This document shows, piece after piece, positions 2,669 through 28,400 of a stretch of 28,667 bases of DNA; position 1 is the stretch's first letter, and each line of letters begins with the position of its first letter. A model generated the notes under the pieces. The model had not been told where the DNA came from, made no database searches, and saw nothing but the letters and a program-made list of their open reading frames with translations. Made by a program: the position numbers and the translations under genes. This DNA comes from a virus (Duplodnaviria > Caudoviricetes), in IMG/VR virus record IMGVR_UViG_3300037991_000421, positions 1 to 28,667 of that record; one strand, given 5' to 3'.

Positions 2669-3312
2669 TGATTATCTTTAGAAACTTTGAGAAAGGAACT
2701 TGGGAGTGTGAAAAGCCCAGGAATGGAGGTTCACAACTCACCACTTGGAAACCTATCCACTACGCAGTGCTACTGAAAGACGTAACCTTTGGAATAGTTA
2801 CACACCCTTTCAAAGTAGAAACTTCGTTCCGCCGAAAACCTTTCAGCCCTGTCAAGTTAGCCCATCTGGGAAAGGGGGCAGACTATGGTATAGCAATCAA
2901 AGGAACTGAGATAAACGATAGTGAGTGGAATGATTTGTATGAAGATACAAACAAGATACCTCACAGCACACGCAGACTATGGTCTAAGTATGGCGAGAAA
3001 TTCTACTCACACTTCCCTTTAATGAGGAAGTATTACGAGGAAAATGGTTTGTTGGGTGACGCAACCACACCACTTGGCAGAAGTGGTATCGGAAATGTAA
3101 TCAGCCACAGAACTTTCCCAGCACTGAGAGAGCATGGCGAAAGTAGTTACTTCATACCTTGTGATGTGAAAGCATTGAGGATAGAATACTCAACAGCCTC
3201 ACACATGCATGTATTGTTTGATAGTGAGCAATCTGTAAGGACATGGAGTGATTGGCATAACAAAATAGAACCATCTTGGAAACAGGTAGTTCAAGCCCGT
3301 TATGCAGCTTAA
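2668..3312 (+). CDS. hypothetical protein
   Basis: 214-aa ORF coupled to the GATase gene (TAATG). No recognisable motif. Confidence 0.75.
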   Translation: MIIFRNFEKGTWECEKPRNGGSQLTTWKPIHYAVLLKDVTFGIVTHPFKVETSFRRKPFSPVKLAHLGKGADYGIAIKGTEINDSEWNDLYEDTNKIPHSTRRLWSKYGEKFYSHFPLMRKYYEENGLLGDATTPLGRSGIGNVISHRTFPALREHGESSYFIPCDVKALRIEYSTASHMHVLFDSEQSVRTWSDWHNKIEPSWKQVVQARYAA

Positions 3313-3333
3313 TCCTGGATAATCCAGGTAAGC
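3307..3333 (+). other. hairpin at the end of the amidoligase operon (terminator or processing site)
   Basis: GCTTA-at-CCTGGA-taa-TCCAGG-TAAGC. No U-tract follows. Confidence 0.4.
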
Positions 3334-3342
3334 GAATAAACC

Positions 3343-4225: not shown

Positions 4226-4355
4226 GAAAGAAGAAGATAGACAATGGGAAATCATGACCGACTTCACAATTAATATGTTGTCGCTTGTGATTTCCTTGGG
4301 GGCATTTGCAATAATAGTTTTACTATTTATGTGGATAACAAAGGTGTTTGTATGA
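4212..4355 (+). CDS. 47-aa single-TM small membrane protein (not in ORF track)
   Basis: MKKDKKEEDRQWEIMTDFTINMLSLVISLGAFAIIVLLFMWITKVFV*. It fills the gap and has an ATGA overlap with the next gene. Confidence 0.65.
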   Translation: MKKDKKEEDRQWEIMTDFTINMLSLVISLGAFAIIVLLFMWITKVFV

Positions 4356-4905: not shown

Positions 4906-5305
4906 ATTATTTACATATGGCACACTTAAAAAAGGGGGCAGACTGGAAGGCATGGTGGGAGATGCTGATTACCTGGGTGAATACTTTACATTACACTCAG
5001 TGTTTGATATGATTGATTATCAAAATGCTTTTCCCATTGTCTTTCGTAAATACAAAGAGGGTAAGTCCATCAAAGGACATCTGTATGAGGTAGATTTATC
5101 TGGTATGGATATGATTAATCGTATGGAAACCAATGCGGAATACACACCAATGGTTGTCGATATAATTAATGAACAAGGTAACTTGACAAATGCTTTAATG
5201 TTTGTTAATGCAGTAGCAGAACAACATACTGACGCAATGTACAAAGCGGGGTCAAGTGATAGAAATATTAAAAGAGAGAAAGGATATGTAGAATGGCAAC
5301 ACTAG
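4865..5305 (+). CDS. gamma-glutamyl cyclotransferase (GGCT/AIG2-like)
   Basis: LFTYGTLKKG signature; IKGHLYEV; ..INRME..Y; TTG start with GGAGG RBS. Confidence 0.85.
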   Translation: MTQKEYDHNPYRTRLFTYGTLKKGGRLEGMVGDADYLGEYFTLHSVFDMIDYQNAFPIVFRKYKEGKSIKGHLYEVDLSGMDMINRMETNAEYTPMVVDIINEQGNLTNALMFVNAVAEQHTDAMYKAGSSDRNIKREKGYVEWQH

Positions 5306-6300: not shown

Positions 6301-6468
6301 ATGAGTGAGAGAATAGAACATGTACCAACTAAAATGAAACATTGGGAAGATGAAATGTATAACGCTGAGTTCGAGGGTAGGTGGAGAGCATACCATGAAT
6401 TTAAAAAGTTATATGAATATTACAAAGAACTAAATGAAAGGGGGCACGAGTATGAACCAAAATTTTAA
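6301..6468 (+). CDS. 55-aa hypothetical protein (not in ORF track)
   Basis: AGGAGA RBS; MSERIEHVPTKMKHWEDEMYNAEFEGRWRAYHEFKKLYEYYKELNERGHEYEPKF*. Confidence 0.7.
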   Translation: MSERIEHVPTKMKHWEDEMYNAEFEGRWRAYHEFKKLYEYYKELNERGHEYEPKF

Positions 6469-7017: not shown

Positions 7018-7234
7018 TGAATTAGAAATACCTGTTGACTTATTAGAGAAAGACCCATTGGATTTAGCTGAAAGTGATGAAGACATAAATAAAATTGTTG
7101 AGTATCTTAAAGCTACCAGGGAAAACATCAGAGCAACAGAGGCTGCAGGTAAACGTATCACCAGCAAAGCCGCTAGAACTAAACCAAAACAATTTGAAAC
7201 TAATGTGTTAGACATGTTAGTAAAGGAGACATAA
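7010..7234 (+). CDS. hypothetical protein
   Basis: AGGAG RBS; coupled to the nuclease gene. Confidence 0.75.
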   Translation: MTDELEIPVDLLEKDPLDLAESDEDINKIVEYLKATRENIRATEAAGKRITSKAARTKPKQFETNVLDMLVKET

Positions 7235-8163
7235 TGGAACAACCAGATAGACTAAAGAAGTTTGTATTACAAGATGGTAGACCTATTCAAAAGATATGGG
7301 ATACATCAAGTCTATCATCATTCCTTTCATGCCCCCGACTATACAATTACTCTAACTTGCAGGGGTACAAGTCAAAGACTTATGGCATGGCAACTGGATT
7401 TGGTTCGGCTGTGCACGAAGGATTTGAGGTCCTTGACGCAGAGAAATTCAAGGGGGCAAGTAAAGAAGAAGCTGTTGTCGCAGCTATCAAGTATGTTCTC
7501 CTGGAATTTGGCGAGGCACTTAACCTATCAGAAGATAAGGCAAGAGGACTGACCTCTGTTCTTCGTGCAATAGTATGGAGAGCAGAGGAATACTGGGATG
7601 ATTTGTTTGAGATAGCAACCATGCCAGATGGTTCGCCATGTCTTGAGCAAAGGTTTGAAGTTCCCTTTGGTAATGGAGAGTATAGATTCTCTGGTCGTAT
7701 TGATAAGATAGTTCAACTTGATGGCAAGTTATATCTGTGTGATGTAAAGACTACAAAGAGTACACTTAACTCTAATTACTTTAGTAACTTCATGCCTAAC
7801 AACCAGGTATTCTCATACATCTGGGCAGCGCGAGAAGTTCTAGGTTTAGATGTTGCAGGATTTATTATTGACGCAGTGCAAACTGGCGTTCACTTTACTA
7901 GGTTTGATCGAAGTGTGTACAATGTACCAACTGATTTAATAATGGAGTGGTACAAAGACGCAATGCATACATTAGATGTATCAACTAATTATTTTAACAA
8001 GCAGTATTATCCTGCGGATTTTACTGCATGTAACAACTATGGTGGTTGTAGATTTAAAGAAGTGTGTTCGGCATCACCGTCTCGGAGAGATATATTCCTG
8101 GACAATGACTTTGATAAAGAACCACACCCAGATTTGAAGGAGGCATATGACAAAGCAGTATAG
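7234..8163 (+). CDS. PD-(D/E)XK exonuclease, Cas4/AddB-like, with putative 4Fe-4S staple
   Basis: SCPR, FGSAVH, E.RF, SGRIDKI, DVKTT, Q...Y and C-terminal C-x5-C-x5-C. Confidence 0.85.
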   Translation: MEQPDRLKKFVLQDGRPIQKIWDTSSLSSFLSCPRLYNYSNLQGYKSKTYGMATGFGSAVHEGFEVLDAEKFKGASKEEAVVAAIKYVLLEFGEALNLSEDKARGLTSVLRAIVWRAEEYWDDLFEIATMPDGSPCLEQRFEVPFGNGEYRFSGRIDKIVQLDGKLYLCDVKTTKSTLNSNYFSNFMPNNQVFSYIWAAREVLGLDVAGFIIDAVQTGVHFTRFDRSVYNVPTDLIMEWYKDAMHTLDVSTNYFNKQYYPADFTACNNYGGCRFKEVCSASPSRRDIFLDNDFDKEPHPDLKEAYDKAV

Positions 8164-8272
8164 AGAAAAACAATACACCCCACCTAAGAAGTGGTATAAC
8201 AATACAAGTTCATTATTAAATATAATAGCTGTGTTGTTAGTATTAAACTTATTCTTTTCAATAATATTATGA
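8147..8272 (+). CDS. 41-aa small membrane protein (not in ORF track)
   Basis: AAGGAGG RBS; MTKQYREKQYTPPKKWYNNTSSLLNIIAVLLVLNLFFSIIL*. Confidence 0.6.
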   Translation: MTKQYREKQYTPPKKWYNNTSSLLNIIAVLLVLNLFFSIIL

Positions 8273-8382
8273 TTACGGTAACCAACATTTTGTTGATTTT
8301 AATACTGTTATCTAACGTGTTCATTGCATTTATGATATACGCATTGGGCAAAGTTTTGTTGGAGGAACAAAAAAAAGATTGA
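8269..8382 (+). CDS. 37-aa small membrane protein (not in ORF track)
   Basis: ATGA coupling; MITVTNILLILILLSNVFIAFMIYALGKVLLEEQKKD*. Confidence 0.55.
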   Translation: MITVTNILLILILLSNVFIAFMIYALGKVLLEEQKKD

Positions 8383-8407
8383 CACGAATTTAAATTCATG
8401 CTACAAT
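8379..8407 (+). promoter_or_regulatory. sigma70-type promoter with palindromic spacer
   Basis: TTGACA-17 nt-TACAAT with TGn and an A-tract upstream. The spacer holds the perfect palindrome GAATTTAAATTC (8386-8397). Confidence 0.7.
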
Positions 8408-8429
8408 ACATACTTTACAGGAGACAAAT

Positions 8430-9224
8430 ATGGCAAACATTAGCAAACATAAATCGACAGAGTATACAAAGTTATTGCTCGTAGGTGACAGTGGGGCAGG
8501 TAAAACATCAGCACTTGCCTCACTTGCCAATGCAGGTTATAACTTACGCATACTAGATTTCGATGATGGACTATCCATCTTACCAGAGTTCTTAGATGAG
8601 AACGCAGTTAAGAACGTATCTTACGTTACACTGCGTGATGGTCTAGGTCAAGCGAATGCTTTTAGAAAAGGTGTTCAAATGATTACCAACTGGAAAGATG
8701 GCGACGAAGACTTTGGTTCAGTTAAGAACTGGACTAGCAAAGACGTACTCGTTATTGATAGCTTAACCCTGATGGGAGAAGCTGCGTTACGTGGTGCCTT
8801 GGTTTTCAATAACAAGAAACCAACTGACCAACCAAGTCAGCCAGAGTGGGGAACTGCGGCACGTGATGTACAACATATTGTACAATACATAACGGGTTCA
8901 GAAGTACCATGTAATGTAGTGGTTACTACTCACATGCAATACATGGAGGGAGACTTAGGTGTATCTAAAGCATACCCTACAAGTGTAGGTTCAAAGCTAT
9001 CTACTAAACTAGGTAGATACTTTAACTGTGTATGTAGGATCGACACACGGTCTTCCAGTAAGGGCACAGAGCGTACCCTCAGAACAGTATCAGATCACAA
9101 GATGGATCTTAAGATTACAGCTCCATCCCTGGTTGAAACAAATGCTGAGCTAAATTTAGCTAAGTTATTTGAGGCTGTGCAGAAAAATGCTCAAAGTAAA
9201 TTAACAAATAAAGGAGGCAAATAA
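8430..9224 (+). CDS. AAA_24/Sak4-like P-loop ATPase (single-strand annealing recombinase)
   Basis: Walker A GDSGAGKT, ILDFDDG, LVIDSLT, VVVTTH. Lies between an exonuclease and an SSB-like gene. Confidence 0.8.
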   Translation: MANISKHKSTEYTKLLLVGDSGAGKTSALASLANAGYNLRILDFDDGLSILPEFLDENAVKNVSYVTLRDGLGQANAFRKGVQMITNWKDGDEDFGSVKNWTSKDVLVIDSLTLMGEAALRGALVFNNKKPTDQPSQPEWGTAARDVQHIVQYITGSEVPCNVVVTTHMQYMEGDLGVSKAYPTSVGSKLSTKLGRYFNCVCRIDTRSSSKGTERTLRTVSDHKMDLKITAPSLVETNAELNLAKLFEAVQKNAQSKLTNKGGK

Positions 9225-9661
9225 TGTCAGATGTTAATGACTTTTTATCGATGACCCCTAGTGAAGTACCAGAGTCGGTAACTTTACCAGAGGGTAGCTA
9301 CGATTTTACTATCACTTCTTATCGTTCGGATAAGGTGGGAGAAAATCAAACACCATTAGTTCGTATCAACTGTAAGGCAGTTGGTGTGATTCAATCTGAT
9401 TTGGGAGAATCGGATTTGGTAAATGCCGAGCCAACTCGTATTGAGTTCTGGGCTACGCCAAAGGCAATGCAACAAAACAATCCTGCGTTGTCATTAAAAG
9501 CATTCCTTACTAAAGGATTAGAGATGGATGATGGTTCATCTTTCGGTGAATTGCTAGAGCAATCTATCGGTCAATCCTTCAGTGGAATTGTCAAGCATGA
9601 AATGGTTGGCAGAAACAAGGACATACTTCAAGCGTCCATCAAACGTATAATTAAGAAGTAG
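9224..9661 (+). CDS. putative ssDNA-binding protein (DUF669-like OB fold)
   Basis: LPEGSYDFTI start motif; position directly after the Sak4-like ATPase. Confidence 0.6.
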   Translation: MSDVNDFLSMTPSEVPESVTLPEGSYDFTITSYRSDKVGENQTPLVRINCKAVGVIQSDLGESDLVNAEPTRIEFWATPKAMQQNNPALSLKAFLTKGLEMDDGSSFGELLEQSIGQSFSGIVKHEMVGRNKDILQASIKRIIKK

Positions 9662-9666: not shown

Positions 9667-10770
9667 ATGGGTGAGTACGCAGTCAATAAGCGAGTGCCAT
9701 CACGCACACCATCATCAGCCGATGGTTGCAAGATAGCATTTGTTTTTGAGTATCCTACCAACAAAGAAGCAATAGCGAATACGATTCTGCAAGGGGGCAC
9801 GGGAAAAGTATTCACTGAACTATGTGACATTGCAGGTATTACTCTCGACGATTGTTTACTCACCCATGCTATACAATTAAAGCCCCATCAAAATACAGCA
9901 CAACATTTTTTCCACAAACGAAACGAATACAAACGCTTGTGTAAGACAACCGAGTGGCGATCACAATTCAGTCCTACTAAAGAGGGTTATCTTAAACAAG
10001 AGTACGAGCAAGACATACAACGGTTACACAAAGAAATAGAAGAAGCCAATCCAAATATCATTATCGCAATGGGTTCATTATCTTTGTGGGCAGTGACAGG
10101 TCTAGATAAAGTTGGTACTTATAGAGGGGCTACACTACAAACAAGTCTCCTTTCTTCTCCATATAAAGTACTTGCAACTTATAGTCCTGTTGCTGTCGTT
10201 AAAAATTTTAAGTGGCGACCTCACGTAGCTTCTGATTTAATCAAAGCTAAAAGCGAATCGCTCAGCAAAACATTAGAACATACAGAAAGAGAGATATGGA
10301 TTGAACCTACTCTCTCAGATTTAGATACGTTCTATACTAAATACATTAGTAAAGCAAATCACAACGACCCTCTCGCATTTGATATTGAAACAGCAGAAGG
10401 CTCTATCGTATGTATAGGCTTTGCGCCTAACCCTCGAACTGCAATCGTAGTTCCTTTTCGTGATAAGAATACTGACACCCAAAACTATTGGAACGCTACC
10501 GAAGAAGTAGCGGCCTGGCAGTGGGTACGTAAGATCCTGGAAGACGAAGAGATTGTAAAGGTAGCACAGAATCAACTATATGATATATCATGGCTCGCTC
10601 ACAAACAAAAAATAAAAGTTAAAGGTATCACACATGATACCATGCATGCCCAACATTCACTGCAACCAGAACAAGAAAAAGGTTTAGGTTTCTTAGGCTC
10701 GATTTACACAAATGAGAGTGCTTGGAAAACACTAGCCAAGTTTTCAAAGAGTACCAAAGCAGATGAATAG
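9667..10770 (+). CDS. split DNA polymerase A, part 1: UDG-like domain plus N-terminal part of the 3'-5' exonuclease
   Basis: UDG-fold motifs (EIEEANPNIIIAMG..S, YRG, VLATYSP); ExoI AFDIET; ExoII AQNQLYD; HDTMHAQH..QPE..GLGFLGSIYT. Confidence 0.8.
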   Translation: MGEYAVNKRVPSRTPSSADGCKIAFVFEYPTNKEAIANTILQGGTGKVFTELCDIAGITLDDCLLTHAIQLKPHQNTAQHFFHKRNEYKRLCKTTEWRSQFSPTKEGYLKQEYEQDIQRLHKEIEEANPNIIIAMGSLSLWAVTGLDKVGTYRGATLQTSLLSSPYKVLATYSPVAVVKNFKWRPHVASDLIKAKSESLSKTLEHTEREIWIEPTLSDLDTFYTKYISKANHNDPLAFDIETAEGSIVCIGFAPNPRTAIVVPFRDKNTDTQNYWNATEEVAAWQWVRKILEDEEIVKVAQNQLYDISWLAHKQKIKVKGITHDTMHAQHSLQPEQEKGLGFLGSIYTNESAWKTLAKFSKSTKADE

Positions 10771-10772
10771 AA

Positions 10773-11087
10773 ATGAAACGATCAGAATTATTCTCGGTAA
10801 AGCCAATGCCAGAGGATTCAAAGGACATAGAGAACCACTACAATTTATGGAGGGCTGTTCTCGATCAGGCAGTACAAGACTATTCCTACACGGGAAAGTC
10901 AGAAGAGGGATTGAAATACAAAAAGGAAGTAGAGAAGTGGTTGAAGTATAAGTATGACGATTTTAAATTTGTGTGTGATCTAGCTGCGGTAGACCACATG
11001 CGTGCAAGAAAAGAATTTGAACGATACAAGGAGGGAGAATATGACAACAACAGGGAGGTCATCAGAGCTACTAAGAAAAGCAAGTGA
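10773..11087 (+). CDS. conserved-looking phage hypothetical protein
   Basis: LWRAVLDQAVQD..WL..DFKFVCDLA pattern. Confidence 0.75.
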   Translation: MKRSELFSVKPMPEDSKDIENHYNLWRAVLDQAVQDYSYTGKSEEGLKYKKEVEKWLKYKYDDFKFVCDLAAVDHMRARKEFERYKEGEYDNNREVIRATKKSK

Positions 11088-11349
11088 CTTAGTAAATGGT
11101 GACCGTCAAAAAGATTATGGAGATAAGCTTCATAATCACATTAACATTGCAGACTTATGGACAGCGTATTTAGATACGACTGTCAGCCCTCATGATGTAG
11201 CAGTCATGATGTGCTTATTAAAGATAGCTAGACTGAAGCAAGGATCCAGAACAGAGGACACATACCTGGATGCATCAGCCTACATGGCAATAGCGAGAGA
11301 AATACAGGAGAGATTAGATGGCGAGGATAATAAAGAACACAGAGATTAA
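11041..11349 (+). CDS. DUF6378-like protein
   Basis: GDRQKDYGD, IADLW, DVAVMMCLLKIAR, DTYLD..AY; ATG 11041 after GGAGGGAG. Confidence 0.8.
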   Translation: MTTTGRSSELLRKASDLVNGDRQKDYGDKLHNHINIADLWTAYLDTTVSPHDVAVMMCLLKIARLKQGSRTEDTYLDASAYMAIAREIQERLDGEDNKEHRD

Positions 11350-12865
11350 GGATTTAAAACTTAATTCAGAACAAGTACTGTGGGTTTATTGTGGGTTAGA
11401 TTGTAATTTAACCACAGAGATATGGGGTAAACTTTCTCCTCAACTAGATAACAATACAAAAAATACATACGAGTTTGAACGTAACTCTTTAGGTCCAGCC
11501 ATATCAATGGTATTGCGTGGGTTACGTGTAGATGAGAGGGCAGTTACTATGATACGTGCCCCCTTACAAAAGAAAAGATTAAAGCTAGAGAGAATGCTCA
11601 ACCTTTTCGCGAACGCAGTTTGGGACAAGGACTTAAATCATAACAGTCCAGTACAATTAAAGGCTATGTTGTACGAGTATTTAAATCTTCCAGTACAAAT
11701 TAAATATGAGAAAGGTAAACAAAAGATATCAACAGACAGAGAAGCACTTGAACATATGATAGAAGAGTATCCTCGTGCTCGTCCTTTCTGTAAAACTATT
11801 ATTACCTTACGTGATATTGATAAACAATTATCTGTGTTGAAAGCAAAGAGAGATTCTGATGGACGTATACGTTGTTCATATAATGTGGCAGGCACAGAAA
11901 CAGGTAGATGGTCTTCATCTGAAAGTCCTTGGGGTACAGGTACAAACTTACAGAATATTACAAAGGACTTGCGGGCTATGTTCATACCAGACAGAGGACG
12001 TGTCATGTTTTACGCAGACTTACAAGCTGCAGAATCTAGGGCAACTGCTTACCTGTCAGGTGACGAAGGTTATATAAACGCCGTTGAATCATCAGACCTG
12101 CACACTGAGGTAGCTAAAATGGTTTGGCCTAACATGGGTTGGACAGAAGACAACGCACAGAATCGAGCACTAGCAGAGCAACCTTATTATGGAAACTTTT
12201 CTTATCGTGATGTATGTAAACGAGCAGGTCATGGTACAAACTATGGAGCGTCTGCTAATACAGTAGCACGTCATACTAAAATTAAAGTAGCACATGCTAC
12301 AAGATTCCAGTTATTATATTTTGGTGGTGTGGTTCCTCTTGCTTCTCTTGAACGTTGGCACAAACAAGATAAACGTGGTGGCTTTGAAGAACTTATAGAG
12401 ATAGGAGAAGTCATAGGTAGTGGAAGCCAGCAGCTTGTGCGTGTGAAGGGGGCATTCCCTGGTATAAGAACTTGGCATACAGAAGTTATAAAAGAATTAC
12501 AGACAACAGGTAATCTTATTACACCATTCGGTAGACGCAGACAATTCTGGGGTAGACTAGATGATGAACACTATGCAAGAAAAGCTATTGCTTATCTTCC
12601 ACAATCTACAATCGGTGACTTATTGAACTTAGGATTATATAGAGTATGGAAAGAATTGTTTGATGAAGGTGTGGAAATACTGGGACAAGTACATGACGCA
12701 GTGTTAGGTCAATGTCCTATTAATAAAGTAGATTATTTAATACCAAAAGTAATTGGTTGTTTGGAAAATCCTGTTGAAGTTAAAGGTAGAACTATGGTGA
12801 TACCTTCTGACGCAGAGGTAGGAGATTCCTGGAAAAACTTAAAGAAGTGGGGAGCGAATGCGTAA
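11318..12865 (+). CDS. polA: split DNA polymerase A, part 2: ExoIII helix plus polymerase domain
   Basis: ExoIII YCGLD; TETGRWSS; NLQNI; motif A ADLQAAESR; motif B RDVCKRAGHGTNYG; TPFGRRR; QSTIGD; motif C QVHDA. Confidence 0.92.
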   Translation: MARIIKNTEIKDLKLNSEQVLWVYCGLDCNLTTEIWGKLSPQLDNNTKNTYEFERNSLGPAISMVLRGLRVDERAVTMIRAPLQKKRLKLERMLNLFANAVWDKDLNHNSPVQLKAMLYEYLNLPVQIKYEKGKQKISTDREALEHMIEEYPRARPFCKTIITLRDIDKQLSVLKAKRDSDGRIRCSYNVAGTETGRWSSSESPWGTGTNLQNITKDLRAMFIPDRGRVMFYADLQAAESRATAYLSGDEGYINAVESSDLHTEVAKMVWPNMGWTEDNAQNRALAEQPYYGNFSYRDVCKRAGHGTNYGASANTVARHTKIKVAHATRFQLLYFGGVVPLASLERWHKQDKRGGFEELIEIGEVIGSGSQQLVRVKGAFPGIRTWHTEVIKELQTTGNLITPFGRRRQFWGRLDDEHYARKAIAYLPQSTIGDLLNLGLYRVWKELFDEGVEILGQVHDAVLGQCPINKVDYLIPKVIGCLENPVEVKGRTMVIPSDAEVGDSWKNLKKWGANA

Positions 12866-14117
12866 GACAACAGACTTTATAAATGGTTGTTTAGATATAA
12901 CTAAAGGGACACCTATTCCAGATAAGTTTTCTCAATGGACTGCGATTTCGGCTGTTGCGGGAGCACTCGGTCGTAAGTGTTGGTTCTCTATGGTTAACTA
13001 TGAGATACGTCCTAACATATTTGTAGTATTGATTGCACCACCAGGTAGAAACAAATCTGTATCGCTGATCTTGCCGTTCTCTAAAGTGTTTTCTAAACTG
13101 ACTACACCTATTGGAACAGAAGAAGATCATGAAGAATTTAATAGCGGTCTAACTAAGTATGGTTTAAAAAATTATCCTTTACATTTTATTCAAGATAGAA
13201 TTACACCAGAAAAATTAGCAGTTGAAATGCAGAAAGTATCTAGGTTAGATTTACGTGTAGGTAATACTGAATTGTTTTACGATTCATCTTTAACTTTAGT
13301 TACCTCAGAGTTTGGTACATTTATGAATAGAACTTCACAATACTTACAGATGTTCTTAACAGATATGTGGGATAGTAAAGATTCATACAGCCACCAGATT
13401 AAAACAGGTTCATCACAATTTATTAAAGGTCCATGTCTTAATTGGATTGCTTGTGCTACACCTCAACAATTTGTGGATAACTTACCAGAGGATGCAGCTT
13501 CACAAGGACTATTATCCAGGATGTTACCCATCTACCATGAAGGTACTCAAATACCACAAAGTTTATATAATGATAAGATTGATGAGGACAAAGTAGAAAA
13601 TCTAAGACATGACTTAAGTCTCATAGCTAGAATGCATGGTGAATTTACAGTTGACCCAGAAGCTAAAGAGATAATGGAAAAAGATTTTCAACAATACATA
13701 GAACCAGTGCCTACTGATCCCAACATGTTGGAGTATAATCAACGTAGGGTATCTCATTTCTTAAAGATTGCTATGTCTATTAGTGCTTCGCGTAGAGGGA
13801 CTAAAGTAATTACTGGCAGTGATTGGGATAGAACTAAGAAGATTATGTTCGATATGGAGAAGGATATGCCTAAGGCACTGGAAGGTTTTGGTATGAGTAA
13901 AACTGGCAGAATTGCTCATAACATGAAGGACTGGTTGGAGACTACTGTGTTTAATAATAACCGCTCTCACGTGCGTTTAAAGCTGTTTAAACGGCAATTA
14001 TTGACCAAGATAATGTCGCCGGGAGAAATCCCACAGTACATCCAAGCGATGGAAGACTCTGGTTATATCCGTGTTGAATCTGAATTGGTATTCCTATGCA
14101 GAAAAGACGGAATATAA
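12858..14117 (+). CDS. DUF3987-like AAA+ ATPase, putative replicative helicase
   Basis: Walker A-like APPGRNKS, ITPEKL, Walker B-like VTSEFG, LTDMWD, GLLSR arginine finger. Confidence 0.7.
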   Translation: MRKTTDFINGCLDITKGTPIPDKFSQWTAISAVAGALGRKCWFSMVNYEIRPNIFVVLIAPPGRNKSVSLILPFSKVFSKLTTPIGTEEDHEEFNSGLTKYGLKNYPLHFIQDRITPEKLAVEMQKVSRLDLRVGNTELFYDSSLTLVTSEFGTFMNRTSQYLQMFLTDMWDSKDSYSHQIKTGSSQFIKGPCLNWIACATPQQFVDNLPEDAASQGLLSRMLPIYHEGTQIPQSLYNDKIDEDKVENLRHDLSLIARMHGEFTVDPEAKEIMEKDFQQYIEPVPTDPNMLEYNQRRVSHFLKIAMSISASRRGTKVITGSDWDRTKKIMFDMEKDMPKALEGFGMSKTGRIAHNMKDWLETTVFNNNRSHVRLKLFKRQLLTKIMSPGEIPQYIQAMEDSGYIRVESELVFLCRKDGI

Positions 14118-14655: not shown

Positions 14656-16416
14656 ATGATAAATAAACCACAGATAGATGTCGAACGCGACAATCTTTTG
14701 ACAGACTTCGGTAAAGAAGTTCTTCGAGACAGATACATGTTACCCACAGAGAAATCACCCCAGGAAGCATTTGCTAGAGCTGCCGCAGCTTTCGCAGACT
14801 CAGATGCCCATGCGAAAAGGTTGTATGATTACTCATCGAAGCTATGGTTTATGTTTGCTACTCCCATATTATCTAATGGTGGTACAGACAGAGGGCTTCC
14901 TATCTCATGCTTCTTAAATTATGTACCTGATTCTCGTGAAGGATTGTCAGAACATTATGCAGAAAATATTTGGCTATCAAGTTCAGGTGGTGGTATTGGT
15001 GGGTACTGGGGCGACATAAGGTCGCAGGATCAATCAACAAGTAAAGGTAATAAGACTACTGGAGTTATACCTTTCATGCATGTAGTTGATAGCCAAATGG
15101 TTGCGTTTAACCAGGGGGCAACAAGACGCGGGAGCTATGCCAGCTATATGGACATATCACATCCAGAAATTATAGAGTTCATAGAAATGAGAAAGCCTAG
15201 TGGTGGCGATGTTAATAGAAAGAATCTTAATCTACATCATGGGATAAATGTATCCGATAAATTTATGAGAGCATTAGAGAAAGATGAAATGTGGAAACTC
15301 ATTGATCCTCATAATAAAAAAGTTATAAGAGAAATAAAAGCTAGACAACTATGGATTAAAATATTAGAGACAAGAGTATCAACTGGTGAACCTTACATTA
15401 TGTTTAGTGATACAGTTAATAAAGGATTACCAAAAGAATTAAAAGCAAAAGGATTAAAGGTACATCATTCAAATCTGTGTAGTGAAATTACTTTACCTAC
15501 TAATCCAGATCGTACTGCAGTGTGTTGTTTGTCTAGTGTAAATTTAGAATACTATGATGAATGGAAAGACGATACACATTTTATTGATGATCTTATGCGT
15601 ATGTTAGATAATGTATTAACTTACTTTATTAAACATGCCCCCGCTCATTTGTGGAGAGCAGTAGCTTCTGCAAAAGCAGAGCGGTCAGTAGGTCTAGGGG
15701 CTATGGGATTTCATTCTTATTTACAGCGTAAAGGTGTAGGATTTAACAGTCCTATGTCTTATGATATTAATAAGAATATATTTAAACACATATATGATAA
15801 AGCTTTAGAATCAAACTTTGCTCTTGGTAAAGTGAGAGGAGAACCAGAGGATATGAAAGGTAGTGGTAAAAGGTTTGCACATATGCTAGCCATTGCACCA
15901 AACGCTAGTAGTTCTATCATATGCGGAGGCGTATCACCTAGTATAGAACCATTACGTGCTAACGCTTTCACTCAAAAAACTATGAGCGGTTCGTTCTTAG
16001 TTAAGAATAAATACTTAGAAAAATTATTAGAAGAGAAAGGTAAGAATACTAAAGATGTTTGGAAGACTATTATTTCTAGTAGAGGATCTGTCGATGCGCT
16101 CGACTTCCTCAACGCACAAGAAAAAAATATATTTAAGACGGCCATTGAGATTGATCAAGCGTGGTTGGTTGACTTGGCTGGCGAACGTCAAAACTATATT
16201 TGCCAAGCGCAATCATTAAACTTATTTTTTCCACCTGATGTAAACGTAAGAAGATTAAACAACATACATAAACGTGCGTGGGAAAATGGATTAAAAACTT
16301 TATACTATTGTAGAAGTGAAGCTATTAAAAGAGCAGAGAACATAGCTAATAAAGTAGAGAGAAAAGTTAGACAAGATAGTCAAGAGGAGGAATCATGCGT
16401 GATGTGCCAAGCTTAA
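14656..16416 (+). CDS. nrdA: class I ribonucleotide reductase alpha subunit, without ATP cone
   Basis: ATPILSN, ISCF, SNLCSEI, AVCCLSS, AIAPNASSS, LYYCRS, C-terminal CVMC. Confidence 0.95.
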   Translation: MINKPQIDVERDNLLTDFGKEVLRDRYMLPTEKSPQEAFARAAAAFADSDAHAKRLYDYSSKLWFMFATPILSNGGTDRGLPISCFLNYVPDSREGLSEHYAENIWLSSSGGGIGGYWGDIRSQDQSTSKGNKTTGVIPFMHVVDSQMVAFNQGATRRGSYASYMDISHPEIIEFIEMRKPSGGDVNRKNLNLHHGINVSDKFMRALEKDEMWKLIDPHNKKVIREIKARQLWIKILETRVSTGEPYIMFSDTVNKGLPKELKAKGLKVHHSNLCSEITLPTNPDRTAVCCLSSVNLEYYDEWKDDTHFIDDLMRMLDNVLTYFIKHAPAHLWRAVASAKAERSVGLGAMGFHSYLQRKGVGFNSPMSYDINKNIFKHIYDKALESNFALGKVRGEPEDMKGSGKRFAHMLAIAPNASSSIICGGVSPSIEPLRANAFTQKTMSGSFLVKNKYLEKLLEEKGKNTKDVWKTIISSRGSVDALDFLNAQEKNIFKTAIEIDQAWLVDLAGERQNYICQAQSLNLFFPPDVNVRRLNNIHKRAWENGLKTLYYCRSEAIKRAENIANKVERKVRQDSQEEESCVMCQA

Positions 16417-17485: not shown

Positions 17486-18441
17486 GTGTATTTAATTCAA
17501 GAGATTATTATAAACCATTTAAATATCCGTGGGCTTTTGAAGCTTACGATTTACAACAGAAGATGCACTGGCTACCAAGCGAAGTGCCCCTTCATGAAGA
17601 TGTAAACGATTGGAACAACAGAATGAATGATGGTGAAAAGAATTTGGTAAAACAAATACTAACATTCTTTACACAAGGGGATGTGGATATAGCGCAAGCA
17701 TACATGGATGTATACATGCCTATGTTTAAACAACCAGAGATTCGTATGATGTTATCAGCTATTGCAACTAGCGAAGCAAACCATGCTCACTCGTATTCAT
17801 TATTAAATGATACAATAGGTATGGATGATGGAGATTATAAAGCGTTCCAAGAAATCACAGCTATGAATGATAAGCATGAGTACTTGTGGAAAAACAAAGG
17901 GGGCACAGAAGAGGAGAAGATTGTCAGAGACATGGCTGTGTTCTCAGCTTTTGGTGAAGGGCTTCAGTTGTTTGCTAGCTTTGTAATGCTGCTAAACTTT
18001 CAAAGGTTTGGCAAGATGAAAGGCATGGGACAAATTGTCGCATGGTCTATTCGTGATGAGTCGCATCATGTAGAGAATATGATTAAGCTAGTGCATGCAG
18101 TACTAGATGAAATGCCTCACGTTTGGCATGACAATTTTAAGAAGACTTTATATGATATATGTAGAGACATGGTAGAACTAGAGGATAAGTTTATCGATCT
18201 AGCTTTTGCTATGGGTCCTGTAGAAGGGTTGACTCCAGAAGAAGTCAAGCAATACATAAGACATATAGCGGACAGAAGATTGTTACAGCTAGGATTAAAG
18301 CCCAACTATGGAGTCAAAGATAACCCACTTGAGTGGGTAGACTGGATTGTTGGAGGTGTGGAACACACCAATTTCTTTGAGAATCGTAGCACGGAGTACG
18401 CAAAAGGCGCACTTACTGGTACTTGGGACGATGCATTTTAA
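17482..18441 (+). CDS. nrdB: class I ribonucleotide reductase beta subunit
   Basis: W.PSEV, FFTQGD, EANHAHSY (radical Tyr), EGLQLF, RDESHH, NFFE..TEY. Confidence 0.95.
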   Translation: MSVFNSRDYYKPFKYPWAFEAYDLQQKMHWLPSEVPLHEDVNDWNNRMNDGEKNLVKQILTFFTQGDVDIAQAYMDVYMPMFKQPEIRMMLSAIATSEANHAHSYSLLNDTIGMDDGDYKAFQEITAMNDKHEYLWKNKGGTEEEKIVRDMAVFSAFGEGLQLFASFVMLLNFQRFGKMKGMGQIVAWSIRDESHHVENMIKLVHAVLDEMPHVWHDNFKKTLYDICRDMVELEDKFIDLAFAMGPVEGLTPEEVKQYIRHIADRRLLQLGLKPNYGVKDNPLEWVDWIVGGVEHTNFFENRSTEYAKGALTGTWDDAF

Positions 18442-18454: not shown

Positions 18455-18483
18455 TTGACACCAGCATCAAATCGTGCTATTAT
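18455..18483 (+). promoter_or_regulatory. sigma70-type promoter, extended -10
   Basis: A-tract, then TTGACA-17 nt-TATTAT with TGn; intergenic. Confidence 0.7.
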
Positions 18484-18488: not shown

Positions 18489-18563
18489 TTGAAACTAGAC
18501 ATAGTTTTAAGGGGGCACATAAGGCTGAGTGACTGATAAGCAGTTGTTCAGCCTTTGGCTTTT
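18489..18563 (+). ncRNA. candidate ~75-nt small RNA or structured leader
   Basis: Begins at the predicted +1. Hairpin 18489-18510, linker GGGGGCACAT, 15-bp hairpin 18521-18555, then a T-rich tail. Confidence 0.4.
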
Positions 18564-19061: not shown

Positions 19062-19333
19062 GATTAGAAGCAGAGATATATTCTAAACCTAACTGCCCTT
19101 ACTGTGATATGGCTAAGTTGCGTCTAGTTTCATACAACCCAAAGATTTATATGTTAGATACTGATTATACGAGAGAGGACTTTTTTAAAAAGTTTCCAAA
19201 TGCAAAAACATTCCCACAAATAATTTTAAATGGTGAGAAAATAGGTGGGTATCTTGAACTTGAAAAATGGTTTGACAAGTTTATAATAAAACAGGAGAAT
19301 AATAATGAAGGACATACTACAAGAAGCGGTTAA
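19058..19333 (+). CDS. grx: glutaredoxin
   Basis: YSKPNCPYC, TFPQI, IGGY; ATG 19058 in an ATGA overlap. Confidence 0.92.
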   Translation: MRLEAEIYSKPNCPYCDMAKLRLVSYNPKIYMLDTDYTREDFFKKFPNAKTFPQIILNGEKIGGYLELEKWFDKFIIKQENNNEGHTTRSG

Positions 19334-20531
19334 TGCTTTAGTACTAGCAAAGGGAAACATATCTGAAGCAGCTCGTGCTTTGAAGTTACCAAGACCCACA
19401 CTTAATAGTCGATTAGAAAAAGCTAAACTAAATAATATTAAACCTACAGTTAAAGCTGCAGATACTGAAGCGGCTTTGACAGAACAGAAACTTACGTATG
19501 AGTTACAGATAAAAGAACTCAAACAACAAGTAGAAGAACTAGCTAGAGAAAACATAACGGCAGATGCTATACGTAAGCATGTGTTTCAGCTAGGAGAATA
19601 CAATGCCAAGCCACCTAAGTGGTTGCATAAATCTACACCTGCTAAAGGTGCACCAGGAATACCTACGTTATTCTTATCTGACTTTCATTGGGGAGAAGTA
19701 GTAAGTAAAACAAACGTAGATAATTTAAATCAATACAATAGAGATATAGGAAAGAAGAGAGTAGAGTTTACAATCAACTCTGCTATTGACTTATGTACCA
19801 ATCACATGGTCAATGCTAAGTATCCTGGTATTATATTACCTCTTGGTGGGGATATGATTAGTGGTAGTATTCATGATGAGTTAATAGAAACAAATGATGG
19901 AACAAGTATAGAACATGTACTTGAACTATTAGATATGTTAGCTTCTGGTATTACTAAACTAGCTGACACATTTGGTAATGTATTTGTACCATGTGTAATA
20001 GGTAATCACAGTCGCATGTATAAACAATACAGACATAAGCAAGCTGTTGAAAGTAGCTTTGACTGGTTACTGTATAACATGTTAGAAAAATATTTCTCTA
20101 AAGATAAACGAGTTAACTTCTTAATACCAAATACATATGACGCATATTATAAAGTATATGGTATTAGTTATCTGTTGACACATGGTGACAGACTAGGAGT
20201 TAAAGGTGGTACTGGTATAGTAGGAATGCTTGGGCCTATAGCACGAGGCGTGCAGAAAGTCAAGTCCGAATACGCTAACTTAAAGAAACCTGTGGACTAT
20301 GTAATCATGGGTCACTTCCACCAATACATATCATTGAAAGATGCCATTGTTAATGGATCAATAAAAGGATATGATGAGTACGCTATGTCGGGTAGATTTG
20401 CATACGAAAGACCGCAACAAGCATTGTGGTTTACACACCCTGTATATGGTATTACATTTCAAGTACCTGTACAAAGTGTTGAAAAAGAAATTAAAAAACC
20501 AAAGGAATCGTGGGTATCATGGCGAAGTTAG
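19305..20531 (+). CDS. Fis-like HTH, coiled coil and calcineurin-like metallophosphoesterase
   Basis: GNISEAARALKLPRPTLNSRL; SDFHWG, GGD, GNH, THGD, GHFH motifs. Confidence 0.85.
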   Translation: MKDILQEAVNALVLAKGNISEAARALKLPRPTLNSRLEKAKLNNIKPTVKAADTEAALTEQKLTYELQIKELKQQVEELARENITADAIRKHVFQLGEYNAKPPKWLHKSTPAKGAPGIPTLFLSDFHWGEVVSKTNVDNLNQYNRDIGKKRVEFTINSAIDLCTNHMVNAKYPGIILPLGGDMISGSIHDELIETNDGTSIEHVLELLDMLASGITKLADTFGNVFVPCVIGNHSRMYKQYRHKQAVESSFDWLLYNMLEKYFSKDKRVNFLIPNTYDAYYKVYGISYLLTHGDRLGVKGGTGIVGMLGPIARGVQKVKSEYANLKKPVDYVIMGHFHQYISLKDAIVNGSIKGYDEYAMSGRFAYERPQQALWFTHPVYGITFQVPVQSVEKEIKKPKESWVSWRS

Positions 20532-20534: not shown

Positions 20535-20563
20535 TTGCATGTGCCCCCTTTTTATGTTATACT
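20535..20563 (+). promoter_or_regulatory. sigma70-type promoter with GTGCCCCCTT in the spacer
   Basis: Intergenic TTGCAT-17 nt-TATACT with TGn. Confidence 0.6.
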
Positions 20564-22425: not shown

Positions 22426-25400
22426 TTATTCTAGACCTAAAGCTTTTCTTTGCTTAATGTTCTTACCAATGTTAAGTGGATCTTTAGTTAATCTTACATC
22501 ACTATAGGTAGCTTCTAATGCTTGTTGCATTAGTGCGTTTAAGTCAGGGAATATCATATCAGATATGTCTTGCTTGTTATTCCATTTGAATAACTCTCTG
22601 GTTATATCATTTAATTCTTGTTGGCCTTTTAAAACCATTTTACTATTACCTATTTGATTACCTACGAATATATCTCTGTATGCATTTGTAATTTGCGCAT
22701 TAACTTTTTGTCTTTTACTTTGATTTCTTGTAGCATTTTTTCTTTCTTGATATAATGCTTCTCTCGCTCTTTTATTTCTAGCAGAACCAAAACCTATACT
22801 CTGTAATATAGTTTCCATAGCACTAGCATCAGTGCTTAGTACACTACCATAATTAGTTTCAGTAAATCCTTTACCCAAACTTTGATCATATGCTTTGTAC
22901 ATGTTACGTATAAATAAAGGTGATGATCTAAATGCTACATCTAATAATCCTTCGCCTTCTCTCATAGCTTGTGCACCTTCTCTTATTGATGTAATAAATA
23001 CAGAACCAGGTGCCCCCGCAAAATCTGCCGCATTTCCGCCAGGCGTTAGTCCTAGCAGTGCCGCAATTGCTCTTATTTGTTGTGATCCTGGTACATTACC
23101 AAGTGACAATCTTCTTTGTACATCTATATTTAATCCAGCTTCTATTACACCGTTCTCCATAGCATTAATTAATCCTGGCCCAAAGCCTGCTTCATACAAC
23201 ATTTCCCTCATAGCCGCTCTCATGTCTGTCTTAAGTCCCGTTCCTACGATAGGTGCCTTTTCAATCAGCCAGTTAGCTAACTCTTCTGCATCATCAGATC
23301 CTGGTAATCCAAAGAGACCGCCTGTTAGACCTAACATAACCATCATTCTAGCAAATACTTTTCTTCCTGCAGTTTTAGAACCAGGAGTTTTACCACCTGT
23401 TAATAATCTAAACATTAATGCAAACATCTGTCCAATATAAGTTTGGAATAATGCAGGCACAGCAAAAGCACCACGCATAATTTGTGGTCTATTTAGTTTA
23501 CCATACACACCAAACGTATCATCAATCATAGTTCGTGCAATTATTTGAGGGCTAATGATGCCACCATTGTCATTAATCATACCTTGTACTAGGTTATCGC
23601 CGTTATATATTTTATAAAATTCTTCTACAACTTTAGGATCTTGTCCCATTCTATAAGCTGCTATGTATGCAGTTAAACGAGAGATTGCTTCCATTGTATT
23701 GAATGGCCCGCCAATTACTTGTGTTTCAAAGTTACGGAATGCTGTGTCTCTATCAAATCCTGAACGTCCGGGTACTTGTCCTGTTTCTTGCAGTGCTTGA
23801 CCTTGTCTAATATAATTAGGCATGTCTTCTTCTATTGCAGCTTTAACATCTTCAGGGACTTTAGTCCAATCTATAAATACATCGCCGTGTTGATTGTTAG
23901 TGTAAGAAAACATAGCTGTTGCTTCTTTAAATGCAATACCTAATTCTTTTGTAGCTCTTATACTTCCCCCCATCTGTGAAAGCATAGGTCCTGTAAATTG
24001 TACGTTAGACATTATCTGCAAGAATGCAGATGATAAGTTGCCCCCAAGATACCACCAAAATCCTAGTCGTCTTAGTTGTGCAAACTCTTGATATGGGTCT
24101 TGGCTATAGTTCCACCACTTATCAAAACCAATTTTTAATTGTTTGTATTTAATTGGGTCAGTAGCAATAGCATCTTCTAATACTTTCTTTCTCTCATCTG
24201 CTTCATTCATAAACCTACTACGCGCCGCATATCTAGAACCTAAAAAACCAAACTGACTTGCAGCTCTACCAAAATCAGGATTGTATCCTGGTACACCACC
24301 TACTCTTTGACGTGGTTGCATGAATTGATCAAAGCCAATTATATTTTTATTGTTTTTAATTAATTCTCTAAGTTCCCCTTCTAGTTCTGCAAACACTTCT
24401 TGTTTAGGATTACTTAAGTATTGAGCAACATCTAGCATATCAATAGAACCTTTTTCTAACTTCTCTTTAATATTAAGTTGACTTATTTCTTGTACGTTTC
24501 TAACTTCTACGCCAGTGTCTTCTCTCCAATCACTAATAAATTTAATTCTTGCAGCGTCTGCTTCTTTCTTAGTTTCAAAATGTTCACGTCTAATTAAGTA
24601 AGCAGGATTTAATTTAACAAACTTACCTTTAACTTTCATAGCCCCTTGCTCTGTTGCCGTTGCGTCTAAGTATTGAGGTTCATTATTATTAACTATAGTT
24701 ACTACATAATCACCAAATCTAGATAAAGGTGCATAGTCACTTTGTTTAAACTCTTCAAACTTTGTCATCTGACTATGTAGTTTAATTAACCCTAGGTCTG
24801 CTGTGGCTTTTGGTTGCTCAGCTATAGGGTCAACACCTAATATACTTTGTATTTCTTTTATAGCACTAGGAGTTAAAGCAGATCTATCTACAAACTCTGC
24901 ATCTCTATTCTCTAAGATTCTTCTAAGTGCACTAATAATGCCAGTCATTTGTTGATACGTTATATTTTCTAACTCTTCATCAGTATTTAAATTTGACAAG
25001 TCAGGCATGTATACACTAGATAAAGCTTTACCTTCATGAAACTTTAATGTTTCTACTGCACTTTTAAGTTGTTCCAAATAACCACCAGCTATCATTCCTT
25101 TTATTTGTTCTTTAGCTAAAAATGTTTCTGCTACTTGATACTCAACATATGCTTGTGCTAAATCTCCTTCTAATATAATTAACTCACCAGCTGTCATTGG
25201 CAAACCTGTAGGACTATTTCTTGAATCAAAATCCATTGGCATTCTAAATATAATTCTACCATCTTGGTCAGGTCTAAATGTTCTGTTAGGGTAGTATTGT
25301 GATATAACTTGTGCTCTATATAATGCTTCACGCATAGCAGGATCTTCTATCATCTTACTATATCTAAATAAAATATTTTGATAAGTGTTCTGTATTTGTT

Positions 25401-28400
25401 TAGCTTTAGTATTCATATTCTCAATACTACGCCATACTCTTTCAAACAGCGGATTATCTTTAGCCCATGTTCTAACAAAGCCAGCGATACGATGCATCAA
25501 ACTCATCTTAGGCATATCCATAGTGGTATTATCTTTACTATAAGTTTTTTTATTTTCCTCCATAGCTTTACCCATTTTAGCATTGAGTGCTCTCTTCTGC
25601 TGTCTGTTCATAGGAATATATTCATCCATAGGTTTTTCACCTGGCACAGGTTGATATTGATTTGCCGCCATCATGTTAGGTTGACGTATACCATATGCAC
25701 CGTCATTAAATACAGATTTAAATTGTTGTGGTTTAAATATAATGTATGAATCAGTAGGTGGTTCTTCAATCATTAACATGATTTCTTCCACAGTAGGTTC
25801 TTTAACTGTCGGGTCAATAACACCTGTCGCTTGTGCTGCTGCGTAAGCTACAGCTTTTCTACGTATAGACTTGTGTTTGTATTCTCCTTCGTTTAAGTAT
25901 ACTACACCATCATAACCTTTCTTTTGTATAAGTTCTTTTATTTCTTGGAAGCTTTCATCAAGGCCAGTGTATAAACCCATCTGCCTTAACTGTTCTACTT
26001 GTGATTCATTTTCAGTTTCAAACTTTTCTATTCTATCCATAGCTTTATTAAATTCATTTTCTGTAATGATATTTTTTCTACGTAGATAACCTAATACTGT
26101 AGCAGGATCCCATGTACCAAAGTCAGGTAAACGTAAAGGATTTTTTATATTAGCAAAACCTCTGAATACATAGTAGTCAGATAGTTGTGCCCCCTTATTC
26201 TTAACTAGTGTATCTATTACTGATTGGTCTGGTGTAAAGTGAAAACCAAAATCATTTGTTCTTTCCATATCAAATACTTCGAACGGCGTTCTCTCTGTCA
26301 TTTGTCTAGTATCTAATGTCGCATGCATTACAATCAAGGGGGCACCCTTGTCATCTACTACTTGACTTAGTCTGCCACCACTGTTGAACCATTTAAAGAA
26401 CTGTGCTGTGTTTGTTATTGTAGGTTGTTGTGTAAATAATGCACGAGTACGCGGGGAGAACCCAGAAATTTCCTCACCACTCCATTTGTTTGTAACTATT
26501 ATATCCTTTGCATTGTCACCTGTTAAATATATTTCTGATTCACGTTGCATACTGTCATAACGAGCGCCTACCAAACCAAGATCAATTGCGTTAAATATTG
26601 CAGCTGATGTATCAAATCTGTTTCCTGTCAATGCATTACCTAATGCAATTAAATATTGTTTTAATCTATTAAATGCTCTAGCTATAAAACTCCCAGTTTG
26701 GTATCTACCTGTCATGTAGTCAGCAAATGCGTCAGATATAGCTTCTTCTACTTGTTCATTATAACTTAATTCAGGATGTCTTTCTTTTATTTTATATTGT
26801 TTTATCCATCTATTTTCAGCTGCTCTTGTTAAATCATACCATTCATTTCTTGTAAAGAATCCTTCATTTCTAAGTAAGTGCATTACCTCATGATGTAATA
26901 CATAGTTAAGTGAGTCAGTTCTGTTTAAGTTAGGTCTAAGTTCTGGTATTGCATTGTATGCTACTTCTACACCACGTGACCCTAGTATATATTTACCAGC
27001 AAGTGCAACACCATCTGATTCTAAGAATGGTTTTAAATCTACACGTATGTCTAGATTCATTTTATTTATGATGTCTTTTAAAACTTGATAAACTTTAGGG
27101 GCATTGTCAGCAAAGTCATTTGTTATTCTAGGTTGGTTATAATTTTTTGCCCATAGTTCATACTTACGTTGATAACTATTTTCTTGTTCAAAAGAAAAGT
27201 TTCTAGCTTTCTTTGCTATTCTTCCTAGTCTTGGATCTCTTGTTGTAATACTATTCCACTCGGTAGATATAGTTGGCTCTTCATTAAACGTAGCAAGTGT
27301 TTCATTAAATTCTATTCTAGCTTTATCGATGTTATTAATATGAGTTTCATACATAACAATTTGTTCAGTAACTGCTTCTGTCTGTGGGCCTTGTTTTAAT
27401 TTAGCTATTTCTTTTTCTGACGCTGATCTAGAAGCGGGGCTATATGCTCCAATAATTCTGCCTCTATCCATAATAATATGAGATCGTCTATCAATTCTGT
27501 CAATTTGTTTTTGTATAGCGTCGGCTTTTCTAAAATTATTATTAAATAACTCTGCACGCTTTTGTCTTTTTAATTGTGTCTTTAAAGTTTTTTCTTCAGC
27601 AGTAATCCACTTCCAACCTCTGTTATCTAATAGATGTAATAACTCTCTTAATCTTCTTATTCTTTCTCCAACTGGTTTATCATAAATGCCTTCACCTAAT
27701 TCAGATACTCTTTCAGCTGCAGTTAGTGGTTCAACTATGGTAGAACCAGTTTTTACTTTTTCAGTACGTTCTCTTGTACCTTTTGTTTCATCTTCAAATC
27801 TAATATTATCATTTAATATTTTGTCTAATCTTTTTCTACCTTCAGTCTTAGCACTTCTACCAACTATTTTTGTATTGTTTTTTAAATCTTCAATATATTG
27901 CTGACCAAACGGGCCTCTAAATCCTAATTCATTTAACTTATCATATTCACTATCAGATATATAGTTTGTATTATCTTGTGCTAATGATTGTATTTGTCTA
28001 TATCTTTCTTGAGGCCAAGCTCTTTGTTCTACAGCAGATCTTAAATCTGCGTTATCAACGTCATTAAATTGTGAATACGCACCATCAACTTCACCTTCAT
28101 TCTCTAATGCTTCTTCTACTGTAAGTTCTTTACCATCTTTGTAGTTATCATCTTCGTAGAACATTTGGAATCGTTCTTGTCTAGGATTTTTATTTTGTTG
28201 CCATAAACTATATTCTTGTCTAATTATATTTTGCTGTTCTCTTTGAGCTGTTATATCATTTACAGTATCATTTATGTATTGTTCTTTTTGTTCAGAAAAG
28301 TTTTCATCAAAGTTTTTATCTGTATCTTTATCTACCCATCCTCTTCGTTTTAATTCTTTTTTATTTAATGCGCTAGCTTCTTGTACTTCTTTTGAATCTA

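Follow-up and report, generated by a model that had tools for sequence, protein, structure and literature searches.

What does a seven-base, G-rich word do that recurs on both strands of an AT-rich phage genome? The question is raised by GGGGGCA in a window of 28,667 nucleotides (nt), positions 1 to 28,667 of IMG/VR record IMGVR_UViG_3300037991_000421 (Duplodnaviria, Caudoviricetes), which is a portion of a marine phage, uncultured and about 60 kb long. An original prediction, made from the letters of the window, regarded the word as a selected cis-signal, and listed as possible functions a Chi-like or KOPS-like (FtsK-orienting polar sequence) site, a priming site, the site of a DNA-organising protein, a methyltransferase (MTase) target and the target of a candidate small RNA. 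Its counts and 10-mer coordinates were reproduced exactly: GGGGGCA occurs 18 times (11 on the plus and 7 on the minus strand), 12 times as AAGGGGGCA and eight times as AAGGGGGCAC, and 18 of the 21 runs of five or more G are followed by CA. The word is the most enriched 7-mer of the window, with 0.82 copies expected under a second-order Markov model, close to the rough value of one given before, and 1.8 under a third-order model, and each of its single-mismatch neighbours has at most three copies. As described below, GGGGGCA is a selected, strand-specific DNA word which is kept in both orientations, in and between genes. The best remaining explanation, in which our confidence is evenly balanced, is that it marks the sites of DNA chain initiation by the phage's own replisome.

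The evidence for selection at the DNA level came from several directions. First, the 36 called genes of the window contain 15 copies, compared with 0.60 +/- 0.74 after synonymous-codon shuffling (maximum 3 in 500 shuffles), and these copies use codons that are rare here (GGG in 60 of 570 glycine codons, CCC in 29 of 330 proline codons), in line with the GC-rich codons already remarked in these AT-rich genes. The copies had also been said to fall in different reading frames; several frames are indeed used, but only two of the three in either orientation. Second, in close orthologues, four-fold degenerate third positions inside the word were kept at 0.89 (13 sites), compared with 0.41 at 138 other G/C-ending sites (p 1.6e-6), so that conservation at synonymous positions, proposed as a check, was borne out. 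Third, three copies are intergenic (4298, 18511 and 20542), one more than the two regulatory positions noted before (18509 and 20541), both of which do lie beside promoter-like sites. Codon shuffling, silent-position conservation, intergenic retention and presence throughout the clade thus all agree with a selected cis-signal. Individual sites differ in age, some being old (those in the exonuclease, PolA and nrdB genes) and others lineage-specific. Yet 62 of 63 PolA genes have at least one RGGGGCA, at alternative places, and site density is preserved through turnover with compensation.

Among relatives, the word follows a clade. All 155 clade loci (PolA 64-100% identical; three duplicate loci dropped, and many of the loci closely related) had GGGGGCA at three or more times expectation, with 840 copies observed and 58.4 expected, about 14-fold enrichment, whereas only 2 of 81 distant loci (PolA 36-49% identical) reached that level (124 observed, 153 expected). 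In 13 long contigs we counted 313 copies in 601 kb, or 0.52 per kb. The two strands are used about equally, with 10-15 plus-strand and 11-17 minus-strand copies in five long contigs. A search for a sister clade near 50% polymerase identity yielded no more than one 8-kb contig (2 copies, 0.6 expected). The fine form and the flanks vary along the phage tree, for which a quick version of 57 rows was used (loci of at least 11 kb with near-full PolA). In the sub-clade of the window, AA is preferred in front and a sixth G is never present (0 in 8 of 8 rows); in another group C is favoured after the word (72 of 94), and AGGGGCA is additionally enriched in one 20-row clade and in locus L113. The conserved word is therefore (R)GGGGCA, and the AA prefix, which the original prediction had included in a 10-mer motif, is lineage-specific and not clade-wide.

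The same comparison bears on three trivial or indirect explanations, namely a sequencing artefact, a target of the phage's C5 MTase and an RNA-level signal, which we regard together as very improbable. A homopolymer artefact was ruled out by the agreement of 155 independently assembled loci and by contigs of four runs from four studies, in which no indel was listed at the G runs between 6000 and 15900; the sole indel rows were 6852/6856, and 40 of the 437 substitution rows of this comparison were listed. The window does encode a C5 MTase, but relatives G002-G005, of which two are complete, lack the gene and still have 21-31 copies of the word each, so that the word as a target of the phage's own enzyme is refuted. 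For an RNA-level signal, 216 of the 313 copies are in the sense orientation and 97 antisense. However, the antisense copies are at least equally enriched over codon expectation (6 against 0.2 in G001, 7 against 0.0 in G003), which argues against an RNA-level role and makes the proposed small RNA target unlikely. The genes used for the spacing analysis and for the search for enriched words in distant genomes came from a self-trained caller, since the first caller picked antisense shadow frames in GC-rich genomes; the self-trained caller reproduced the result for phage Kuura from annotated genes, and covered 60% of G005 and 46% of G028.

The arrangement of the copies indicates how the word is used. 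In one genome from each of seven sub-clades, gaps between same-strand copies had a coefficient of variation (CV) of 0.64, compared with 0.88 +/- 0.06 at random (none of 3000 simulations as low), and there were 5 long same-strand gaps where 12.9 were expected. Opposite-strand neighbours, in contrast, were at chance (28 against 33.7 +/- 7.2), and repetition with 11 contigs, which are non-independent, gave the same outcome. Because same-strand copies are even and opposite-strand copies are placed at chance, a site is useful only to its own strand and redundant near a same-strand neighbour. This strand-separate action fits priming or Chi; it does not fit a DNA-organising protein, one of the functions listed before, if this acts on double-stranded DNA. 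KOPS-like polarity is absent: there is no orientation skew along replichores, almost all 10-kb bins of four long genomes have the word on both strands, and the sense bias is just 216 to 97.

The replication module of the phage brings the priming question into focus. It consists of a PD-(D/E)XK exonuclease, a Sak4-like annealing protein, an SSB-like protein, a split family A polymerase (PolA) and a DUF3987 helicase, without a recognisable primase, and is present in this form in all long genomes examined. A primase is encoded by 98% of viruses that have a DNA polymerase, and a DUF3987 helicase commonly has one next to it or fused to it (PMC4889955). In the clade, and in 24 of the 25 distant contigs whose helicase was detected by tblastn, the PolA gene immediately precedes that of the helicase, and in the window the two genes overlap with no open reading frame (ORF) in between. 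Searches for DnaG_N (PF08275) in 30 relatives and for Prim-Pol (PF09250) and Toprim_2 (PF13155) in 25 records gave no match, the latter two also missing the annotated primase of Pelagibacter phage HTVC023P. PHROGs on 80 of 146 ORFs of two complete genomes (the others being orthologues already scanned or structural) gave no primase family except the helicase's own label, and tblastn with three annotated primases found none. The split of the polymerase falls inside its 3'-5' exonuclease domain; the upstream part also has a UDG domain, and two small ORFs separate the parts. The 104-aa ORF has a low-confidence predicted fold (predicted local distance difference test, pLDDT, 49), and its Atlas matches were viral clusters without names only. 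The PolA model (pLDDT 96) is Klenow-like, with full-size thumb and fingers; about 45 residues are inserted in the fingers (around residues 336-377), as in a few distant relatives. At E 1e-30 or better, the polymerase family comprises over 1,100 protein clusters, and the module was checked in some of them.

We propose that the helicase unwinds the DNA and that a priming activity residing in the split PolA or the helicase module would read the word on single-stranded DNA. Used as a T7/SP6-type template with a cryptic 3' base, the word would give a primer starting G-C-C-C-C; reading of the opposite strand would instead give RGGGGCA, a primer that starts with a purine, and the data favour neither strand. 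In a genome of 34-41% GC, chance would seldom produce such a word, so that selection would keep a copy every 3.8 kb or so on each strand (313 in 601 kb), a scale like that of Okazaki fragments. Each region may be copied in both directions, as both orientations are selected in both genome arms. Since no phage primase was found, host priming would be the default, and the word might then serve a borrowed host replication factor, for instance DnaG brought in by the phage helicase, or a restart or nucleoid protein of the host. We consider this quite unlikely, as bacterial primase sites are trinucleotides (PMC5737085), and the word would be expected in host DNA and in other phages of the host, which is not so for SAR11.

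Known systems resemble this arrangement in part. T7 primase reads 5'-GTC-3' and SP6 primase 5'-GCA-3' (PMC5737085, PMC2034472). Like these sites and those of NrS-1 PrimPol (5'-GTGG-3' and 5'-TTTGGTTA-3'), GGGGGCA is short, non-palindromic and strand-specific, with even spacing on each strand and independence between strands; it ends in the SP6 triplet after a G run and is spaced on the scale of lagging-strand fragments. Unlike those systems, the window phage has no recognisable DnaG/Toprim or archaeo-eukaryotic primase, its seven bases are strictly kept, and priming is a proposal of ours. De novo priming by PolA enzymes encoded next to a helicase is known from CCPol-MP and TV-Pol (PMC7581432, PMC10061031, PMC10201439). 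With CCPol-MP-Cch2 of SCCmec and TV-Pol, the phage shares a PolA whose 3'-5' exonuclease domain is reduced to its tail and whose gene immediately precedes that of the helicase, an operon without another primase, and an SSB-like gene in the operon. It differs in that the missing exonuclease part is encoded upstream, fused to the UDG domain, the SSB adjoins Sak4, and the thumb and fingers are full size. Because the defining OB-fold gene between PolA and helicase is absent, we do not place the phage in this family; nor is use of a seven-base word throughout a genome known for CCPol-MP. Literature searches gave no description of the word or of priming in this module (subscription journals mostly outside their coverage), and within the literature searched the word is apparently new to print.

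The main rival to priming is a Chi-like site which restrains an end-processing nuclease, either AddAB/RecBCD of a marine host or the PD-(D/E)XK exonuclease of the phage, so that any DNA end meets an oriented site within a few kb. We judge it somewhat unlikely. Chi of RecBCD/AddAB is likewise a G-rich, strand-specific 7-8-mer selected within phage coding DNA, and it is over-represented in phages without inhibitors, including recombinase-encoding ones (PMC3784561). Even same-strand spacing with both orientations is compatible with permuted or random ends, an exonuclease-Sak4-SSB set is encoded by the phage, and some distant relatives (G019, G032) enrich GCTGG-containing words. However, GGGGGCA has another sequence than the known Chi words: the Caulobacter chi, GCGGTGGT (PMC5443536), and two gammaproteobacterial Chi words differ from it and have 0-4 copies in clade genomes. 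Its enrichment is also about five times stronger, about 14-fold at 0.52 per kb here compared with 2.5-3.1-fold at 0.2 per kb for Chi in phages (PMC3784561), and its flanks vary with the phage tree. When candidate hosts were checked for enrichment, as had been suggested, it was not seen in SAR11-like DNA, the only host-type DNA covered: 167 kb of dereplicated non-rRNA contigs, chosen with a SAR11 probe, hold GGGGGCA five times (0.03 per kb), while GGTGGTGG is enriched there, and nine cultured pelagiphages total 2 copies. A word of the SAR11 genome was rejected on these counts. SAR116 phage HMO-2011 has 3 copies. As a separate observation, GGTGGTGG is enriched in the SAR11-probe contigs (L282-L386, 19 against 3.0) and in HTVC023P (L098, 29 against 6.7), where GCTGGTGG is also enriched (16 against 3.7); GGTGGTGG is a possible SAR11 Chi candidate, with glycine-rich coding as an alternative source.

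A third explanation is that a DNA-binding or nicking protein specific to the clade, such as the helix-turn-helix (HTH) phosphoesterase, acts at the word. It would either nick virion DNA or let strand displacement start from nicks, in which case Sak4 would anneal the displaced strands. The gene is confined to the clade (Table 1), and 8 of 13 contigs have a minus-strand copy of the word 13-34 bp downstream of it. Phages tf, T5 and phiKMV have site-specific nicks at a repeated consensus, and tf too has amidoligase and amidotransferase genes (PMC3517423); their nick words are likewise non-palindromic, spaced in kb and at similar positions in relatives. Nevertheless, we think it unlikely, because the nick words described in that source are on one strand only, whereas GGGGGCA is balanced between strands, close opposite-strand pairs, a break risk, are not avoided, and Kuura has a word without the HTH-phosphoesterase.

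Distant relatives with the module give further information on the reader. The nearest cultured polymerase to the window PolA is that of Caulobacter phage Kuura (39% identity), which has the same gene order and its own word, GAGGGAC (33 copies, 11.1 expected). G012, whose polymerase is 65% identical to Kuura's, has GAGGGTC instead (30, 10.9 expected), and this one-letter change between related phages points to a phage-encoded reader. The Caulobacter chi is not enriched in Kuura (5 against 4.3), which is a further point against Chi, Kuura lacking enrichment of the chi of its host genus. Each of the three words consists of a run of G with two or three bases after it, and the GCA and GTC endings are the SP6 and T7 primase triplets, a likeness that we take as a lead only. 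The only non-structural genes that Kuura shares with the clade and nearly all distant genomes are those for the helicase, PolA, UDG-exonuclease, Sak4 and exonuclease; the Kuura counterpart of the window SSB-like protein has a DUF669 score at E 0.002. Weaker selection would be expected in distant genomes, because at 45-64% GC G-rich words arise by chance at 0.04-0.30 per kb. Separately, Kuura (L097), G012 and G017 have polar words (GAGGGAC, GAGGGTC and GGGTTTG), mostly antisense and directed away from the junction behind the helicase. G027 (L422-L424) is enriched for the palindromic core GCCGGC (GGCCGGC, 39 against 9.3 sense and 37 against 9.5 antisense), and the distant G030, G031, G033, G034 and G037 have in common a modest enrichment of TCCGGG-containing words.

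Several points weigh against priming by the phage's own replisome. The readers are candidates, and the priming activity is something we infer. The primase absence is soft, because the PF09250 and PF13155 searches missed the HTVC023P primase as well, and the PolA model shows the usual Klenow-like fold and lacks any additional primase domain. Known DnaG-type and other bacterial primase sites have three bases, not seven (PMC5737085). Seven genes, including that of the HTH-phosphoesterase, are in 10/10 clade genomes (six in 0/25 distant genomes, one in 1/25), and this distribution matches that of the word no less closely than the polymerase lineage does. Most of the 26 distant genomes with the same module lack a word of similar strength, and the seven that have one at p 1e-8 or lower reach only 3-6-fold. 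The Kuura word is polar (27 of 30 in-gene copies antisense, directed away from the junction behind the helicase) and uneven per strand (CV 1.76), unlike GGGGGCA. Finally, the host tests covered SAR11-like DNA only.

The individual sites and the candidate readers are collected in Table 1. The segments 18509-18520 and 20539-20550 form a perfect 12-bp inverted pair 2 kb apart, in which both intergenic sites are conserved, and sigma-70-like promoters lie beside them (18455-18483 and 20535-20563). A hairpin or terminator role was rejected, as no word-containing structure is common to the three intergenic sites.

Table 1. Copies of GGGGGCA and replication-related or candidate reader genes in the window.
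Feature	Position	Strand	Conservation or basis
GGGGGCA, sense, ORF 2668-3312 (KGA)	2874..2880	+	
GGGGGCA, intergenic; just one relative aligns here	4298..4304	+	
GGGGGCA, sense, gamma-glutamylcyclotransferase (KGG)	4934..4940	+	
GGGGGCA in 10-mer form, start of DUF6552 ORF	6440..6446	+	
GGGGGCA, antisense, PD-(D/E)XK exonuclease (CPR), codon 33; deeply conserved	7330..7336	-	21/40 non-redundant orthologues, 57-95% identity
GGGGGCA, sense, exonuclease (KGA); sub-clade specific	7452..7458	+	6/40 orthologues
GGGGGCA, sense, UDG/3'-5' exonuclease (GG)	9793..9799	+	14/53 orthologues; 10/10 at >=80% identity
GGGGGCA, antisense, PolA (RAP), codon 80; deeply conserved	11557..11563	-	30/63 orthologues
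GGGGGCA, sense, PolA (KGA); other lineages instead at gene nt 393 or 1083	12448..12454	+	13/63 orthologues
GGGGGCA, sense, nrdA	15114..15120	+	5/28 orthologues
GGGGGCA, antisense, nrdA (HAP)	15636..15642	-	18/28 orthologues
GGGGGCA, sense, nrdB (GG, two rare codons), codon 140	17899..17905	+	27/28 orthologues
GGGGGCA, intergenic, downstream of TTGACA-17-TATTAT promoter-like site	18511..18517	+	Kept in 11/11 aligned relatives, 69-99% nt identity
GGGGGCA, intergenic, inside spacer of TTGCAT-17-TATACT promoter-like site	20542..20548	-	Kept in 18/18 aligned relatives
GGGGGCA, sense, 1912-aa polyvalent protein	23011..23017	-	
GGGGGCA, sense, polyvalent protein	24039..24045	-	
GGGGGCA, sense, polyvalent protein	26188..26194	-	
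GGGGGCA, antisense, polyvalent protein	26338..26344	+	
PD-(D/E)XK exonuclease, Sak4-like annealing protein, SSB-like protein	7234..9661	+	Sequence and domain searches
Split family A polymerase: UDG + 3'-5' exonuclease ORF at 9667-10770, 104-aa helical ORF, DUF6378 ORF, 515-aa polymerase ORF at 11318-12865; candidate reader	9667..12865	+	Domain and model
Stand-alone DUF3987 (MCM-related) helicase, immediately downstream of PolA, primase domain not detected; candidate reader	12858..14117	+	
HTH + phosphoesterase-like protein; rival candidate reader	19305..20531	+	10/10 clade genomes, 0/25 distant

The window also encodes amidoligase-like, amidotransferase-like and gamma-glutamylcyclotransferase proteins, a class Ia ribonucleotide reductase, the C5 MTase, the HTH-phosphoesterase and a polyvalent protein. 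Its nrdA product is 63% identical to those of pelagiphages, and the capsid of relative G001 is 58% identical to that of HTVC023P. The latter has a different replication module, in which a primase is annotated, and contains GGGGGCA twice. Ribonucleotide reductase class differs inside the clade, being Ia in the window (14656-18441) and B12-dependent class II in G002-G005 (G003 118-2031). The C5 MTase gene (16395-17405) holds a 250-aa ORF in the +1 frame (16582-17334), whose match is to another MTase PHROG (phrog_1008, E 3e-23) and which G001 retains at 67%; the arrangement is reminiscent of two-polypeptide MTases with overlapping frames such as M.EcoHK31I. The 1912-aa polyvalent protein (22426-28164) has an ART-PolyVal domain and an HExxH motif, and its G003 version has 2,860 aa.

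In conclusion, the distinguishing feature of this case is a primase-type signature in a phage without a recognisable primase. A broader reading, which we consider somewhat unlikely, is that in the large family with a split UDG-PolA and a DUF3987 helicase but no primase the PolA module primes itself at a sequence-specific word, and that (R)GGGGCA on both strands is the priming map of this clade. Polymerase viruses without a primase are exceptions to the 98% rule of PMC4889955, and for their priming route the clade offers a candidate template word and a few candidate readers. If the Chi-like explanation were true, the word would serve to identify the host of this abundant marine phage clade, which is uncultured, and would be a new Chi sequence. 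Kuura, which is cultured and has the same module and its own word, makes the priming question accessible to a bench test.

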